Below, piece after piece: positions 58,415-64,000 of a stretch of DNA of 64,000 bases. This DNA is from Blastocatellia bacterium (lineage in GTDB: Bacteria > Acidobacteriota > Blastocatellia > HR10): assembly GCA_025055075.1 (NCBI GenBank), contig JANWYV010000035.1, forward strand, positions 11,163 to 75,162. The letters are read 5' to 3'. Position 1 is the stretch's first letter; the number at the start of each line of letters is the position of its first letter. The translations under genes were made by a program, and so were the position numbers. The notes under the pieces were generated by a model that did not search any database, was not told the DNA's origin, and saw only the letters and a program-made list of their open reading frames with translations.

Positions 58415-59497
58415 TCATGCGCAGCCGCCCGAAGCGTCCTCCGCCTTCCCCCAAAAGAGATCGCGATAGGTCTTCGCCGTTTTCAATCGGCTCTCGGCCA
58501 GACGATCGGCGACCACATTCGTCGGAAGGCCCTCGCGCTCGGCGAGCGCCAGGATCTCCCGCACGCGTTCGTAAATCTTCCTCACCTCGGCCTCGTTCTC
58601 TCGCTGCCCCCGCAAATAGAGATTCGCCCCGTGAATGAGGGCTCCGGCGTTGATCACGTAATCCGGGGCATACAGGATGCCGCGTTCTCGAAGCCTCCAT
58701 CCGAGCGCTTCCTCCGCGAGCACATTGTTGGCCGAACCAGCGACAATGTGAGCGCGCAATTGGGCGATCGTTCGTTCGGTGAGAACACCTCCAACAGCAC
58801 AAGGGCAGAAGACATCAGCGGGCGCATCGTAGATCTCCTGGGGAGGGACGATCCGAGCGCCAAACGCTCGCTCGGCCGCCCGCGCCCGCCGCTCATCCAC
58901 GTCGGCGATGATCAAACGCGCTCCGGCTTCATAAAGCCGCCGGGCGATCGCCCAACCAACGCTTCCCACTCCTTGCACGGCGATCGTGAGCCCAGCGAAG
59001 GGGTTTCCCGCCCGAGCTCCCATCCAATGCTCCACGCACGCGCGCATTCCTTCGATCACGCCGAGCGCCGTGTACTCGTCGGCCTCTGCGCCCTCACACC
59101 CAATGTATTGGGTCTCCTCGCGGAGGATCCGTACGTCTTCCTCCGTCAAGCCGAGATCGCGTCCCGTTTGGAACCGTCCTCCTAAACTCTCGATGAACCG
59201 TCCCAGCGCGCGCATGGCCGAAGCACGATCCCACTCCGGATGCTCGATCACCACCGCCTTCCCACCCCCGCACGGGAGATCGGCCATCGCCGCCTTATAA
59301 CTCATCGCGCGAGCGAGTCGAAGGGCGTCCTCCAAAGCCTCGACGTCGCTCGCATATGGACGAACGCGAATTCCGCCGAGCGCCGGCCCCCGCGTCGTAT
59401 CATGGATGACGATGAAGGCTCGCAGGCCAGAAGCATTATTGTTGAGGGCGATCACCTGCTCGAAATCATGCGCCCGTATCGCGTCCCAAATCGTCAT
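58415..59497 (-). CDS. Glu/Leu/Phe/Val dehydrogenase family, leucine (branched-chain amino acid) dehydrogenase-like
   Basis: aligns with Bacillus LeuDH (HDTTRGPALGGIRV, catalytic Lys region GGGKAVV, NAD-binding GVGSVG). Confidence 0.8.
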   Translation of the reverse strand: MTIWDAIRAHDFEQVIALNNNASGLRAFIVIHDTTRGPALGGIRVRPYASDVEALEDALRLARAMSYKAAMADLPCGGGKAVVIEHPEWDRASAMRALGRFIESLGGRFQTGRDLGLTEEDVRILREETQYIGCEGAEADEYTALGVIEGMRACVEHWMGARAGNPFAGLTIAVQGVGSVGWAIARRLYEAGARLIIADVDERRARAAERAFGARIVPPQEIYDAPADVFCPCAVGGVLTERTIAQLRAHIVAGSANNVLAEEALGWRLRERGILYAPDYVINAGALIHGANLYLRGQRENEAEVRKIYERVREILALAEREGLPTNVVADRLAESRLKTAKTYRDLFWGKAEDASGGCA

Positions 59498-61220
59498 GCG
59501 CATCTTCCTCCTGACCACCGCTCGCCCGCGGGCTCAACGGCTTCTGCCGTTCGAGCAGGAGAAGTCGAACGCGCGAATCAGCGCGGGGGAACACTCGGTC
59601 CGAGACAACTCTCCATCCTTCTCGCTCAACGTCAACGAGCTTCGCCACCTTGAACAACGGCGACCGATAGTCGAGCACAAGCCACACGCGGGCACTCTGC
59701 GCGCGTTGCAGATCTTCGCGAAGCGGCAAATGGGGAAGATCGCTCGGAGGGAGCGCGCGCGAAATCGGCGTCCCCCGCAACTCGTATCGCAAACACCGAT
59801 CCAAGTATTCGGGATCAACCACGATCGGCTCCCCTTTCCGCCACTCCTGCCGCAGCACCGCGGCCACAGGCCGATAATCGCTATCAAACGAAGGCGCGCG
59901 ATAATGTGCCTTCAGACCGAGGATCATCGAAAGACTCAACAGCCCAGTGGCAAGCCATCGCTTCCAAGCGGCGCGCACGCTCATGATTCCGGCCGCGAGC
60001 AGCAAAAAGTAATACGGCGTGATCAGCATCAAATAGCGCCCAAGGTCCATGTATTGCTGGATGACCAAGAGTACGCCGCAAATCAAGCCCAACGGAAGGA
60101 AGAAACAGGCTTGCAGCACTCCCGCCCCCGTCGCCCTCCGTACGCCTCTCCAGAGGAGGAAAACCCCCAATCCAATGGCAAGCGGATACAGCGAGAGCTG
60201 TTCCAAAGCGCGCAGGACCATCTCCGTGTTCCAACGGTACTCCGCGAGGTTCTTCAGGGCATAGTAGACCCCCTGAGGGTAAACGAACGAGCCGACCACC
60301 ATCTCCCCGCAAAAGAGGAAGAACTCCCCAACGAGCACGAGACCATCGAGCGGCGGACGCCACCCCTGCCGAGGACGCGAGAAGACTTGATAGACGAACG
60401 TCGTCAGCCACGGCCCATACAGAATCACTAGACCGAGTTGCCATAGCCCCCACCGGCGCAAAGAGGACCAATAGGAATGAGGAAGCACACCGCGACGGGC
60501 CCGGCGCATGACCAGACCAAGGAAATGTAGGTTCATGGCCGCGAGCACTAGCGCGCCGAAGACGTGCGTATAGAGCGCAAGTGCACCTGAGAACATGTAG
60601 CCGAAGGCCTCGCGCCAATCCGCGCGCGCCTGCTCTTCACGAGGATGGACGACTTGCACGCCTAGACCTCGCCCGACGTCGGTCGAGTCCGATTCAGATG
60701 CTCTCGGAAGCCATCCTTCCTGGCGAAGGAAACGCACGTAAGCCAAGGCTGCCCCAAGAACGAGCGCACTCACCAAGGCATACATCCGCGCTTCCTGTGC
60801 GTAGAAGATCTGATGTGGAGAGAGCGCCAGAAGAAACGCCGCCAGTAACGCAGCACGACGAGAGAGGATCTGCCGTCCCAGCCAATATGTTCCCGCGACG
60901 AGTCCGACGCTCGCCAAAAGCGAAGGAGTGCGCAGCGCTGCCGGACTATCGCCGAAAAATGTTGCCCAATACTTCAACACGATGTGCAAAAACGGCGGAT
61001 GAATATTGCTCCGCCCTTCCTCGAGGATGAAGCGAAGCGGCTGCTGCGACACGAACCAGGACCACGCTTCATCGAACCACAGGTTTCGCGCTCCCAAATG
61101 GCTCACTCGAAGGATGACCGCAAGAAGAAGGGCGAGCCAAAAGCCCAGCGTCATGAGATCGGCTCGCCGTTCCCGAACCATCCTTTCGTCCACGCGCGTC
61201 AACATGACTCTCATCATCAT
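59466..61220 (-). CDS. glycosyltransferase family 39/83-like (PMT/ArnT-type) polytopic membrane protein
   Basis: N-terminal WFDEAWSW (DE motif) and 10+ TM segments; 3' end overlaps LeuDH-like start by about 30 nt. Confidence 0.65.
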   Translation of the reverse strand: MMMRVMLTRVDERMVRERRADLMTLGFWLALLLAVILRVSHLGARNLWFDEAWSWFVSQQPLRFILEEGRSNIHPPFLHIVLKYWATFFGDSPAALRTPSLLASVGLVAGTYWLGRQILSRRAALLAAFLLALSPHQIFYAQEARMYALVSALVLGAALAYVRFLRQEGWLPRASESDSTDVGRGLGVQVVHPREEQARADWREAFGYMFSGALALYTHVFGALVLAAMNLHFLGLVMRRARRGVLPHSYWSSLRRWGLWQLGLVILYGPWLTTFVYQVFSRPRQGWRPPLDGLVLVGEFFLFCGEMVVGSFVYPQGVYYALKNLAEYRWNTEMVLRALEQLSLYPLAIGLGVFLLWRGVRRATGAGVLQACFFLPLGLICGVLLVIQQYMDLGRYLMLITPYYFLLLAAGIMSVRAAWKRWLATGLLSLSMILGLKAHYRAPSFDSDYRPVAAVLRQEWRKGEPIVVDPEYLDRCLRYELRGTPISRALPPSDLPHLPLREDLQRAQSARVWLVLDYRSPLFKVAKLVDVEREGWRVVSDRVFPRADSRVRLLLLERQKPLSPRASGGQEEDAHDDLGRDTGA

Positions 61221-61600
61221 TCCTCGCCGCCCCGCGACATGCGCACTCCCGCATTATGTCCATCTCCCCCTTTGCTTTTCAAGGCACGCCGATTGGAACG
61301 AAAAAGAGCCGATACCGCTTCCCGACATTCTGGCCTTAATGGCCTAGCGCCGTACCACTTCATCGGCTCCCATTGAGTCACACCGCAGATGAGAGGACCT
61401 TCTTGAACCACCTGGTGGCGCAGGCGCGGCTGGCCCGAGCCCTGCACGCACCGTCCTCGAGTCCTACACTCTATGCGTTCATACGTCGCATCATCGGCAC
61501 GGATCTGGAAGACGGTGAGAAGAGGCGTTCACTTGGTCGCACCGGAAGGATCACGTCCTCATGTTCATAAGGGCGATTTAGAGGGGGCTAAAAACTTTCA

Positions 61601-61629
61601 ATTTGCATTTGCGCACATTTCGTGTAAGC
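61601..61629 (+). promoter_or_regulatory. candidate promoter for the cimA leader (TTTGCA/TTGCAT - 16-17 nt - TAAGCT preceded by TG)
   Basis: AT-richer stretch about 20 nt upstream of the leader-peptide ATG; weak match to consensus. Confidence 0.25.
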
Positions 61630-61647
61630 TTTTCCCTTGCGAGTTTC

Positions 61648-61785
61648 TATGCAAGGCCAGGTCGGGACAAAGGGAGTATGGGAACGATGCCGGGCGCAAG
61701 GTCCTGGCCTTAGTGGTCCCGATCGCACGTTTCCCCTCGCCATTATCATTCGCCTCATTATACTGCCCGCGTCGGGCAGCGGGTG
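61648..61785 (+). CDS. 45-codon attenuator leader peptide MQGQVGTKGVWERCRAQGPGLSGPDRTFPLAIIIRLIILPASGSG (Ile/Leu regulatory codon run)
   Basis: ATG 61648 to TGA 61783-61785; codons 61741-61764 ATT ATC ATT CGC CTC ATT ATA CTG; below ORF-track size cutoff; no obvious SD. Confidence 0.55.
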
Positions 61786-61856
61786 ATGGCTCCAGCCATC
61801 ACGGAGGGCGCAAGGGCCATTATCCGCTGCCAACGGATAATGGCCCTTGCGATTTT
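61762..61856 (+). promoter_or_regulatory. transcription attenuator: pause/anti-antiterminator hairpins (61762-61778, 61782-61801), antiterminator (61776-61789 paired with 61815-61828) and terminator
   Basis: mutually exclusive helices verified base by base; leader stop codon lies inside the antiterminator 5' strand. Confidence 0.55.
61809..61856 (+). terminator. intrinsic terminator: perfect 17-bp stem GCAAGGGCCAUUAUCCG/CGGAUAAUGGCCCUUGC, 7-nt loop, UUUUU
   Basis: perfect inverted repeat 61809-61825 / 61833-61849 followed by TTTTT 61852-61856, 40 nt upstream of cimA ATG. Confidence 0.65.
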
Positions 61857-61897
61857 TAGGAGATCGCCTTCGCTTGGAGAAAGGAGGTCGGAAGGAC

Positions 61898-63532
61898 ATG
61901 AGGAAGATCGAGCTGTACGACACGACGTTGCGTGATGGGACGCAAGGAGAGGATGTGTGTTTCTCGGTCGAAGACAAGATGATGATCGCGCGCAAGCTCG
62001 ATGAGTTAGGGATTGACTACATCGAGGGAGGATGGCCGGGGTCGAATCCGCGCGACGCCGCGTTCTTCAAGCGCGCGCGTCATCTGCGCTTGCGTCAGGC
62101 TCGACTCGTGGCCTTTGGCAGCACCTGTCATCCGCGACATCGGGCGGAAGAAGATCCCAATCTCCGTGCGCTTCTTGAAGCGGAGACGCCGACGGTCACC
62201 ATCTTCGGGAAGAGCTGGGATCGGCACGTTATCAAAGCGCTCGGCACGACGCTTGAGCGGAATCTGGAGCTGATCCGCGACTCCGTCGCCTATTTGAAAG
62301 CAGCCGGGCGCGAGGTCATTTACGATGCCGAGCATTTCTTCGATGGATTTCGAGCGGATCCCGAATATGCATTGGCTACGCTCGTGACGGCCGAGCGAGC
62401 TGGCGCCGATGTGATCGTCCTCTGCGATACAAACGGTGGCACGCTCACTCATCATCTGGTCGAGATGATCGATGCTGTGCGGCCTCATCTTCACGTGCGA
62501 CTAGGAATCCACACGCACAACGATTCGGATTTGGCCGTGGCCAACGCCATCGCGGCCGTCGAACGTGGGATCACGCACGTGCAAGGGACGATCAACGGCT
62601 ACGGCGAACGCTGCGGGAACGCGAATTTATGCTCGATCATCCCCATTCTGGAGCTGAAGATGGGTTATCGAACGATCGGGCCGGAGCGACTCGTGCATCT
62701 GACGTCGGTCTCGCATTTCGTGAGCGAGCTGGCGAATCTGCCCCCGCGCCCCAATCAACCGTTCGTGGGGCGGAGCGCTTTCGCGCACAAGGCGGGCGTG
62801 CACGTGAGCGCTGTGCTCAAGGACGCTTCGACTTACGAACACATCCCCCCGGAGGTTGTGGGCAATGCGCGGCGAGTCTTGGTTTCCGACCTCTCGGGTA
62901 AGAGCAACCTCCTCTACAAGGCGACGGAGATGGGGATTGATCTCGGCGCTAATCCTGATCGGATCCGGGCGCTTCTTGAGCGCCTGAAGATGCTCGAGCA
63001 TGAAGGGTACCAATTCGAGGGAGCGGAGGGGTCGCTTCGATTGCTGCTCGAAGAAGCTGTGCGAGGAGACTGCACGTTCTTTCAGTTGGAGACATTTCGT
63101 GTGGTGAGCGAGCGCACGGGCGATGGGCGACTTCGTTCGGTGGCCACCGTGCAAGTGCGCGTTGGGGAGCATGTCGAGGAAGCGATCGCTCAAGGGAAAG
63201 GGCCGGTGCTCGCTTTGGATCGCGCGCTGCGGAAAGCGCTGCGCGCGTTCTTCCCGAGCGTGAACGACCTGCGGCTCACCGATTATAAGGTCCGCGTGCT
63301 CGATGCCAGGCGAGGGACGGCGGCCAAGGTGCGCGTCCTCGTTCAAACAAGCGATGGAGAGGAAGAATGGCGTACGGTTGGCGTCTCTGAGAACATTCTG
63401 GAAGCGAGCTATCAGGCACTCGTGGACGCAGTCCGGTATAAGCTGCTCAAGGAATATGGGCGACCGCAACAGCCGCCTTCGCGCGCGGATGCCCTTCCCG
63501 ACTATGAGCAGCAATATGGCTGGGGGGTATAG
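61898..63532 (+). CDS. cimA: (R)-citramalate synthase (Geobacter-type CimA, LeuA family)
   Basis: ELYDTTLRDGTQGEDVCFSVEDKMMIARKLDELGIDYIEGGWPGSNPRDAAFFK and GTINGYGERCGNANLCSIIPILELKM nearly identical to characterised Geobacter CimA; AAGGAGG RBS. Confidence 0.85.
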   Translation: MRKIELYDTTLRDGTQGEDVCFSVEDKMMIARKLDELGIDYIEGGWPGSNPRDAAFFKRARHLRLRQARLVAFGSTCHPRHRAEEDPNLRALLEAETPTVTIFGKSWDRHVIKALGTTLERNLELIRDSVAYLKAAGREVIYDAEHFFDGFRADPEYALATLVTAERAGADVIVLCDTNGGTLTHHLVEMIDAVRPHLHVRLGIHTHNDSDLAVANAIAAVERGITHVQGTINGYGERCGNANLCSIIPILELKMGYRTIGPERLVHLTSVSHFVSELANLPPRPNQPFVGRSAFAHKAGVHVSAVLKDASTYEHIPPEVVGNARRVLVSDLSGKSNLLYKATEMGIDLGANPDRIRALLERLKMLEHEGYQFEGAEGSLRLLLEEAVRGDCTFFQLETFRVVSERTGDGRLRSVATVQVRVGEHVEEAIAQGKGPVLALDRALRKALRAFFPSVNDLRLTDYKVRVLDARRGTAAKVRVLVQTSDGEEEWRTVGVSENILEASYQALVDAVRYKLLKEYGRPQQPPSRADALPDYEQQYGWGV

Positions 63533-63583: not shown

Positions 63584-64000
63584 ATGTTGCCGAAGGAATT
63601 GCTCATGAAGATGCTCTACTACCTCCGCTTGACGCGGGAGGCGGAATATCGCATCGAGCGCGTCCTGTATCGGCAGGGGAAGATCGTGGGCGGCGTTTAC
63701 GTCGGTCGCGGGCAGGAGGCCATTGGCGTCGGGAGCGCCATCCAACTGCGGCCGGACGATGTCGTCGCGCCCAGCCATCGGGATATGAGCGTCTTCCTCA
63801 TCCGCGGGATCCCGCTCAAGCAAATCTTCGCTCAATACATGGGGCGGAAGACGGGCGTGACCGGCGGCAAGGACGGGAATATGCACATGGGGGACATCCG
63901 ACGGCACGTCATCGCCTTTCCCAGCCACATGGCCGATACAGTTCCGGTCGCCGCCGGCTGCGCTCTGGCCTTCAAGCTGCGAGGGGAAGATCGCGTGGCC
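63584..64000 (+). CDS. 2-oxoacid (pyruvate/branched-chain) dehydrogenase E1 component alpha subunit, partial (runs off window)
   Basis: TPP-dependent E1 alpha N-terminus (YRQGKIVGGVYVGRGQEAIGVGS...PSHRDM); GAGGAGGGG RBS before ATG 63584. Confidence 0.75.
   Translation, partial: MLPKELLMKMLYYLRLTREAEYRIERVLYRQGKIVGGVYVGRGQEAIGVGSAIQLRPDDVVAPSHRDMSVFLIRGIPLKQIFAQYMGRKTGVTGGKDGNMHMGDIRRHVIAFPSHMADTVPVAAGCALAFKLRGEDRVA

Follow-up and report, generated by a model that had tools for sequence, protein, structure and literature searches.

A predicted isoleucine-specific leader-peptide attenuator upstream of the citramalate synthase gene cimA in a Blastocatellia bacterium

In Escherichia coli and Salmonella, the ilvGMEDA operon is controlled by an attenuator (ilvL) whose 32-codon multivalent leader carries isoleucine (Ile), valine (Val) and leucine (Leu) codons, and which controls ilvA for the supply of 2-oxobutyrate. 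The thrL (Rfam Thr_leader) and trp attenuators of E. coli provide the canonical four-segment RNA logic of such switches. Many anaerobes and soil bacteria make isoleucine mainly by the citramalate pathway, the regulation of which is known mostly as enzyme feedback. Here, a 64-kb stretch of contig JANWYV010000035.1 from a Blastocatellia bacterium (64,000 nucleotides (nt), 62% GC, hereafter the window) was analyzed around cimA, the gene encoding citramalate synthase. From the sequence and from folding models, the 5' leader of cimA is predicted, with good confidence, to be a classical ribosome-mediated (leader-peptide) transcription attenuator sensing charged tRNA-Ile. Such an Ile-specific attenuator before cimA would fill part of the gap in citramalate-pathway regulation. 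The mechanism itself is textbook and leaves the understanding of attenuation unchanged; its interest lies in the gene controlled, in the phylum concerned and in a recurrence, apparently by convergence, across at least two phyla.

Like ilvL, the window leader has, as read from its sequence, a short open reading frame (ORF) in which Ile codons are clustered, antiterminator and terminator hairpins that exclude each other, and a U tract. Its target would likewise be the enzyme that makes 2-oxobutyrate for isoleucine, cimA taking the functional place of ilvA. Unlike ilvL, the window leader is essentially Ile-only, with a few Leu and no Val codons, and its target is citramalate synthase and not an ilv operon. 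It also has 45 codons against 32, lacks a clear Shine-Dalgarno (SD) sequence, shows no sequence similarity to ilvL (no Rfam match) and belongs to an Acidobacteriota (Blastocatellia) host. With the thr and trp leaders, it shares the four-segment logic, a stop codon that would let the terminating ribosome mask segment 2, and regulatory codons located about 7-8 codons before the stop. Its Gly-rich C-terminus, like that of thrL (GNGAG before the stop), is dictated by a G-rich stem strand. In contrast to these leaders, another amino acid is concerned, two short local hairpins around segment 2 replace the single 1:2 hairpin, and the untranslated state of the window leader is not clearly terminating by the energy model.

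Beyond Proteobacteria, ilvB leader peptides with terminators have been predicted in Actinobacteria by comparative genomics (Seliverstov et al., 2005, PMC1262725). The cimA leader resembles them in being a comparative prediction outside Proteobacteria, with a branched-chain codon run that overlaps or precedes a terminator; unlike these leaders, in which Ile, Val and Leu codons are mixed, it adds a clear antiterminator over the stop codon. In Bacillota, T-box riboswitches lie upstream of leuA and ilv genes (PMC12452182). They give the same output, i.e., terminator read-through on uncharged cognate tRNA, but bind the tRNA directly and need no translation. According to Rfam, no T-box is present in the window leader or in 20 scanned cimA loci. 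A scan of positions 61000-62100 at E-values up to 10 returned only spurious microRNA-like hairpin matches far below the gathering thresholds, the Thr, Trp, Leu and His leader models being unmatched, and no match was obtained in a gathering-level scan of 20 cimA loci, including seven leader-bearing ones. As these scans were negative, explanations by a T-box, a riboswitch or a known leader were dropped. Functional attenuators are almost unannotated in Acidobacteria (PMC2965389). An earlier reading of the same DNA from its letters alone (hereafter the sequence-only reading) had called attenuation undescribed for cimA. This agrees with our search of the full-text literature, in which no attenuator or leader peptide of cimA or citramalate synthase was found; most subscription-journal comparative genomics lay outside its reach, and an earlier mention under the name leuA is possible.

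The candidate switch lies in a 677-nt intergenic region (61221-61897) between two divergent genes, and is made of the following elements.

61597-61630, plus strand: putative sigma-70-type promoter, with the motif TTCAATTTGC at 61597-61606, a -35 box TTTGCA at 61602-61607, a 17-nt spacer and a -10 box TAAGCT at 61625-61630
61649-61786, plus strand: leader-peptide ORF of 45 codons plus TGA, MQGQVGTKGVWERCRAQGPGLSGPDRTFPLAIIIRLIILPASGSG, from ATG 61649 to TGA 61784-61786
61742-61762, plus strand: regulatory codon run ATT ATC ATT CGC CTC ATT ATA, five Ile in seven codons, Leu-flanked
61763-61769 / 61773-61779, plus strand: hairpin 1, CUGCCCG-CGU-CGGGCAG, 7 bp, its 3' arm overlapping the first 4 nt of the antiterminator 5' strand
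61776-61792, plus strand: antiterminator 5' strand (segment 2), containing the leader UGA 61784-61786 in mid-strand
61783-61790 / 61795-61802, plus strand: hairpin 2, GUGAUGGC-UCCA-GCCAUCAC, 8 bp, local competitor for the 3' half of segment 2
61814-61830, plus strand: antiterminator 3' strand (segment 3), comprising most of the terminator 5' arm and loop bases
61809-61826 / 61834-61851, plus strand: intrinsic terminator identified by a terminator scan, 18-bp stem and 7-nt loop, followed by AUUUUU at 61852-61857; its 3' arm is segment 4
61880-61887, plus strand: SD sequence of cimA, AAAGGAGG, strong, 10 nt before the ATG, read from sequence
61898-63532, plus strand: cimA, citramalate synthase, 544 amino acids, TIGR00977 equivalog, the regulated gene in the proposed switch

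The leader ORF ends 111 nt before cimA, on the same strand. Its Ile codons (ATT 61742, ATC 61745, ATT 61748, ATT 61757 and ATA 61760) belong to the block IIIRLIIL, which is followed by six further codons (PASGSG) before the stop, the last Ile codon lying 24 nt upstream of the latter. This is the sole place in the six frames of the window with at least five Ile codons in eight, and four in eight are reached at only seven places. The choice of synonymous codons is also distinctive. Per 1000 codons, the long open frames of the window use 37 ATC, 11 ATT and 4.6 ATA (ATC:ATT = 3.4:1), and minor Ile codons account for 4/5 of those in the regulatory run. Over seven relatives, the leader Ile codons amount to 24 ATT, 9 ATC and 3 ATA, against an ATC-preferring genome.

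Energetically, the two alternative structures are strong and mutually exclusive. The terminator stem has a free energy of -33.9 kcal/mol, and its U run ends 40 nt before the cimA ATG at 61898. The antiterminator is a helix of 17 bp, including three G-U pairs, between 61776-61792 and 61814-61830. Pairing of 61740-61808 with the terminator 5' arm and loop yields, at best, a duplex of -39.4 kcal/mol, a value attained by none of 2000 dinucleotide-preserving shuffles (mean -19.9 +/- 3.1), and the fold of the whole leader has a z-score of -4.0 against shuffles, its minimum free energy (MFE) structure including hairpins 1 and 2. In transcripts ending at 61830, i.e., before segment 4, the antiterminator is the MFE structure with or without the part that a ribosome would mask. 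Once the leader is complete, the terminator with hairpins 1 and 2 becomes the MFE structure, at -60.6 kcal/mol compared with -45.5 for the antiterminator conformer. Going directly from antiterminator to terminator meets a barrier estimated heuristically at about 20 kcal/mol; therefore, an antiterminator formed first should persist while the polymerase crosses the U tract. When hairpin 1 is melted, as it would be by a ribosome stalled at the end of the Ile run, the passage from hairpin 2 to the antiterminator crosses a barrier of about 6 kcal/mol and gains 15.5 kcal/mol, whereas the gain is only 3.9 kcal/mol when hairpin 1 is intact. Finally, a ribosome at the stop codon would cover approximately 61772-61799, i.e., all of segment 2.

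Most of these elements had been named by the sequence-only reading, and several were refined here. The 45-codon leader ORF exists, but had been placed one nucleotide too low (61648-61785), as had the two local hairpins over the antiterminator strand, now at 61763-61779 and 61783-61802. The ORF was said to end on IIIRLIIL, which does not hold given the six codons beyond it, while the five Ile codons of that block were found as described. A pairing of 14 bp around the stop codon proved real, with the stop inside the strand, and extends to 17 bp with three G-U pairs. Likewise, the terminator stands where it had been seen, 40 nt before cimA, with a stem of 18 instead of 17 bp and AUUUUU as its tract. 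Folding of alternative structures, which had been proposed as a check, recovered hairpins 1 and 2, the antiterminator and the terminator, and the identification of the downstream gene as cimA stood (TIGR00977, 750 bits).

The conservation of the unit was followed in a close family composed of the window and six distinct relatives, retrieved from a protein database with their contigs, whose cimA products are 92, 87, 86, 85, 76 and 75% identical; scans of genome and metagenome contig collections with cimA gave no close relative, the best being 67% and 65% identical. The promoter motif, the 5' ATG, the open frame, the Ile run, the stop position within segment 2 and the terminator are kept in all seven members. 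Indeed, TTCAATTTGC, which holds the -35-like TTTGCR, is invariant in 7/7, and a -10 box TA[AC][AG]CT occurs at the equal spacing of 17 nt in 5/7. The leader frames have 41-56 codons, with the ATG 17-32 nt past the promoter. They are open in every member, while stops interrupt 11 of the 14 alternative frames. Over its N-terminal two-thirds, the peptide is unconserved and varies in length by whole codons, whereas the Ile run and the C-terminus are conserved. A free N-terminus within an open frame is the pattern expected, on sequence grounds, of an ORF that needs to be translated but whose product is immaterial. Each leader has 4-9 Ile codons, clustered just before a conserved end, ILP[AG][SP]GSG and then the stop (IIIRPASGSG in the relative L163). 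These ends read LAIIIRPASGSG in L163, LIIRLIILPAPGSG in L165, LAILIIILPASGSG in L167, LAILIHLTIIILPASGSG in L168, LIAIIISIIVIILPGSGSG in L172 and ILATQISGLIILPGSGSG in L174, each followed by the stop.

Among the local hairpins, hairpin 1 is found in 7/7 close family members (with 6 of its 7 pairs in L163) and is nearly invariant, hence without covariation. Hairpin 2 is found in 6/7, L172 having another local hairpin at the same site (GGUUG-AAAAA-CAACC). Both local hairpins and the terminator also come out of an RNAalifold prediction on the close family. Not every related locus has the element: in L176, a Blastocatellia-like locus with a cimA product 69% identical, no leader is present and cimA directly follows gltB.

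More distant leaders of the same type were found in three Acidobacteriota genomes (L003, L004 and L005) and one metagenome contig (L081), with cimA products 61-65% identical. Their peptides of 20-23 codons carry Ile runs and end in [SA]PGG before the stop (MKTPASRIIVISRTIIAGPSPGG, MAQHTRPYINIAIIISSGASPGG, MNTMLAGIAIISITGISPGG and MIRAANISIAIIIARSAPGG), and their stop codon is at the aligned position (CGGCGGAUAGAGGC vs. CAGCGGGUGAUGGC). The geometry is preserved in the five representatives of this type (type A, i.e., the window and the four distant leaders). In all five, 23-25 nt separate the stop from the terminator 5' arm, and a transcript ending at the terminator loop has as its MFE structure an antiterminator encompassing the stop codon. 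Between the end of the main Ile run and the stop there are 24 nt, except in L004 (27 nt) and L005 (15 nt). The distant subfamily has hairpin 1 only, without hairpin 2.

Covariation was assessed on an alignment of 11 leaders. For the terminator, 98.6% of the cells are paired, compared with 27-54% in slid controls, four pairs are changed on both sides, and none of 500 shuffles does as well. The terminator helix is thus, at the level of aligned sequences, well supported by covariation. For the antiterminator, 87.6% of the cells can pair, compared with 27-58% in slid controls. The sequence-only reading had suggested aligning related cimA upstream regions; the Ile run indeed turned out to be conserved and the terminator to covary, but no significant covariation came out for the antiterminator.

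The same arrangement was then looked for further afield, approximately 155 other cimA loci being checked for a terminator and an Ile-rich upstream ORF. Both were found in 17, namely the four type-A loci and 13 whose leaders are unrelated in sequence. The largest group is a Desulfobacterota-type family (e.g., MRNVINNSIVIISATGILVSLLLLLVLELKPPGLIMT followed by the stop), with five Desulfobacterota genomes (L028, L034, L040, L050 and L074) and five metagenome contigs (L083, L110, L131, L149 and L155). These leaders lie about 80-220 nt upstream of cimA and consist of a 25-41-codon ORF with an early Ile run and a Leu-rich, hairpin-forming middle. They mostly end in PGL[IVM]MT before the stop, and their last codons CCUGAUAAUGA pair with the terminator arm CCGUUAUCAGG. 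A third type, found in L126 and L130 (MLLLHSGILITVAISGPA and MILLIQDGIIISVAITGPA, each followed by the stop), has a GGCCACCGGCAGG terminator and lies about 110-170 nt upstream of cimA, and L145 is a singleton (ending in SPAITTSITIAIRNRST before the stop); these last three are from metagenome contigs. Twelve of the unrelated leaders were folded as partial transcripts, and in each of the 12 the MFE structure joins the stop-codon region to the terminator 5' arm by 4-15 bp. Together with the five type-A representatives, the stop codon is in or beside the antiterminator strand in 17/17 folded leaders.

That unrelated leaders share one logic and one amino acid specificity before the same enzyme is, as far as sequences can tell, the strongest argument for Ile codons acting as the sensor. 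If so, the same design in unrelated leader families from at least two phyla would be a clean example of convergent ribosome-mediated attenuation. We lean, with a little better than even confidence, toward Ile-only attenuators being a widespread, uncatalogued control of cimA that was independently invented at least three times (SPGG or SGSG before the stop in Acidobacteriota, PGLIMT in Desulfobacterota and GPA in at least one further family). The lineage of the window may represent a variant with a long leader (41-56 codons) and two decoy hairpins.

Under the proposed mechanism, transcription would start at about 61637 (61636-61638 from the position of the promoter boxes), and a ribosome would begin the leader at AUG 61649 while the RNA polymerase proceeds. 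With ample Ile-tRNA, the ribosome would reach UGA 61784 and cover segment 2, leaving segment 3 with segment 4 only; the 18-bp terminator would then form and transcription would end short of cimA, on the U tract (about 61857). Under a shortage of Ile-tRNA, the ribosome would stall on the five Ile codons at 61742-61762, hairpin 1 would be opened or blocked, and segment 2 would be free. Hence, the 17-bp 2:3 antiterminator would form once segment 3 emerges and would be kinetically trapped, allowing read-through into cimA and probably into the gene downstream of it. Hairpins 1 and 2 would act as modulators that disfavor the antiterminator when no ribosome is stalled. We infer the promoter and its start, the translation of the leader, the stalling at Ile codons, the kinetic outcome and the roles of both hairpins from this architecture. 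Such a switch would make a compact Ile-responsive RNA part of about 220 nt, testable in a cell-free system even though the host is uncultured.

Several observations weigh against this mechanism. Covariation of the antiterminator over the 11 leaders is not above that of shuffles, and two A.C mismatches occur in the antiterminator of the four distant leaders. The antiterminator is therefore a structure supported, in the models, by its energetics and by its conserved pairing potential and geometry, and not by covariation. Before segment 4 is made, hairpins 1 and 2 (-25.2 kcal/mol) and the antiterminator (-29.1 kcal/mol) are close in energy, so that the untranslated leader slightly favors the antiterminator. 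The classical state in which the lack of translation gives termination is thus not assured. The sequence-only reading had assumed this state, with hairpins and terminator all formed, which corresponds to the MFE structure of the full leader but not to the preference seen before segment 4. The start of the leader ORF is also unusual, with no strong SD and only a weak GAG 6-8 nt upstream, with an ATG merely about 10 nt from the likely transcription start, and with a length of 45 codons compared with 20-23 in the distant relatives. Besides, the conserved promoter was not called by a generic promoter scan; its -10 box matches 3/6 of the E. coli consensus, by which it is a weak promoter. Finally, predicted ilvB and leuA leader peptides of Streptomyces coelicolor failed mutational tests of classical attenuation, changes of the regulatory codons being without effect (PMC1262725).

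This last precedent (PMC1262725), by which a leader peptide with a terminator need not be a classical attenuator, favors another explanation, in which a premature terminator, constitutive or regulated, would respond to a protein, a small RNA, temperature or a metabolite, the Ile ORF being a by-product of AU-rich pairing segments (GCCAUUAUC-type repeats). In line with it, the first bases of segment 3 (61816-61824) are a repeat of the Ile-codon stretch GCCAUUAUC (61739-61747), which can also pair with segment 2 (-16.6 kcal/mol), so that its sequence might be constrained by RNA pairing; the leader ORF, in addition, lacks a strong SD. However, Ile runs recur in four leader families with differing terminators, and mimicry of segment 3 cannot explain all of them. 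The frame is open in 7/7 relatives despite indels and a diverged N-terminus, and the position of the stop in or beside the antiterminator strand, common to the 17 folded leaders, matters only if a ribosome reads that stop. As no riboswitch, T-box or protein-binding leader was detected by Rfam here or in the 20 other cimA loci either, a signal other than the ribosome appears unlikely.

Alternatively, the segment of about 220 nt at 61637-61857 could be an independent small gene for a hydrophobic micro-protein or a small RNA, with cimA expressed from a separate promoter or by leaky read-through and without any Ile sensing. In its favor, the segment is complete in itself, from a conserved promoter motif to a strong terminator, and in L172-L175 the terminator is 210-280 nt from cimA, which leaves space for another promoter. 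In the window, on the contrary, the 40 nt between the U tract and the cimA ATG hold the SD and no promoter-like site. Of the peptide, only the Ile run and the structure-dictated C-terminus are conserved, the unit precedes cimA on the same strand wherever it occurs, in several phyla and in leader families without sequence relation, and the alternative pairing over the stop codon would be purposeless; this explanation is therefore given a rather small chance, somewhat below that of a non-ribosomal signal. As for a chance combination of hairpin and ORF, stop-free stretches of 45 codons are common at 62% GC (estimated at about 0.26 per frame), but the Ile run is unique in the window and the duplex energy is beyond all 2000 shuffles. 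An assembly artefact is excluded by the presence of the same sequence in independent assemblies, and the element is conserved in six other distinct relatives, making coincidence or artefact extremely improbable. Each of these rivals leaves unexplained at least one of three facts: the conservation of an open frame, the position of the stop within the antiterminator strand, and the convergence on Ile runs. Classical Ile-codon attenuation, as the sequence-only reading had proposed, is thus supported, its sequence-level features being present and most of them recurring in diverged relatives.

Repeated segments are present within the switch. A GCCAU[UC]A[UC]C-type segment occurs in three copies, at 61739-61747 (Ile codons), 61795-61802 (3' arm of hairpin 2) and 61816-61824 (terminator 5' arm), and the complementary G[GA]U[GA]AUGGC in two, in segment 2 and in the terminator 3' arm. 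With segment 2, the copy in the Ile codons could form a helix of the classical 1:2 kind (-16.6 kcal/mol). Another repeat, GGGCGCAAGG, had been suggested to add alternative pairing. Its copies are at 61692 and 61806, 1 and 2 nt higher than initially given, and the first is unconserved in L163-L168; it was rejected as a functional element and is probably irrelevant.

Other starts and promoters were considered for the leader. There is no in-frame ATG, GTG or TTG 3' of 61649. An SD-like AAGGGAG followed by ATG 61678 and ATG 61687 (region 61672-61713, plus strand) is in another frame than the Ile ORF, and the resulting mini-ORF MPGARSWP stops at 61711-61713. As a leader start, ATG 61687 was rejected as not conserved: it is out of frame in the window, its homologue is in frame in L163 and L165, and L167 and L168 lack it. 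Its frame in the window was apparently shifted by a 2-nt indel. A promoter called by the scan at 61737-61764, within the Ile run, was disregarded, as it is inside the conserved ORF.

Two further genes border the region.

59466-61220, minus strand: PMT_2/Agl23-like membrane glycosyltransferase gene, left neighbor, divergent from cimA
63584-64000, plus strand: start of a thiamine pyrophosphate (TPP)-dependent E1-alpha-like dehydrogenase gene, 51 nt past cimA and cut by the window end

Because the upstream glycosyltransferase gene is divergent, the terminator at 61809-61857 cannot belong to it. The cimA product scored 750 bits against the TIGR00977 model citramalate_synth (cutoff 450) and stayed far under the cutoffs of the leuA models, the best of which gave 292 bits (cutoff 517); by these scores, it is a genuine citramalate synthase. 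The Blastocatellia/Acidobacteriota metagenome-assembled genome (MAG) GCA_033579395.1 encodes an identical protein, annotated as citramalate synthase, and identical protein and DNA are also found, besides this NCBI MAG, in an independent Logan assembly of Sequence Read Archive (SRA) data. The Acidobacteria-like origin guessed by the sequence-only reading is thereby borne out. Several sources label such TIGR00977 enzymes 2-isopropylmalate synthase. The leader would provide independent regulatory evidence that they serve isoleucine synthesis and, if the prediction is true, an Ile leader could be a signature separating true cimA from leuA-like paralogues in annotation.

The order cimA then E1-alpha-like dehydrogenase gene is kept in all close relatives, and the second gene is probably co-transcribed with cimA, hence under the same attenuator. 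It is complete in L161/L162 (3187-4158, 323 amino acids), where its best NCBIfam match is the pyruvate dehydrogenase (PDH) E1 alpha family, with 300 bits and under the cutoff of 411. No E1-beta gene lies 3' of it, the next gene in L161/L162 being a convergent TPP enzyme of the acetolactate-synthase type.

In many Desulfobacterota/Geobacter-type loci (L031, L036, L042, L046, L070, L071, L079, L106, L108, L115, L122, L125, L135 and L136), an aspartokinase gene, with a C-terminal ACT domain (ISTSEIKISCVID) in its product, immediately precedes cimA, and no Ile leader is present. This arrangement suggests another operon context and another regulation.

The left flank of the attenuator-cimA unit is non-syntenic among relatives, while the unit itself is conserved. 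In two relatives with 86% identity, a DDE_Tnp_1 transposase fragment (L170/L171, 193-546) stands directly upstream of the leader promoter. In the relatives with 75-76% identity, an insertion of 210-280 nt separates the attenuator terminator from cimA (L172/L173, about 720-1000; L174/L175, about 790-1000). The insert of L172 contains a long inverted repeat (CACCACAGAGACACGGA...UCCGUGUCCUCAGUGUCUCCGUGGUG) and three ATTCGTG repeats, and may be an insertion resembling repetitive extragenic palindromic (REP) elements or a second regulatory element.

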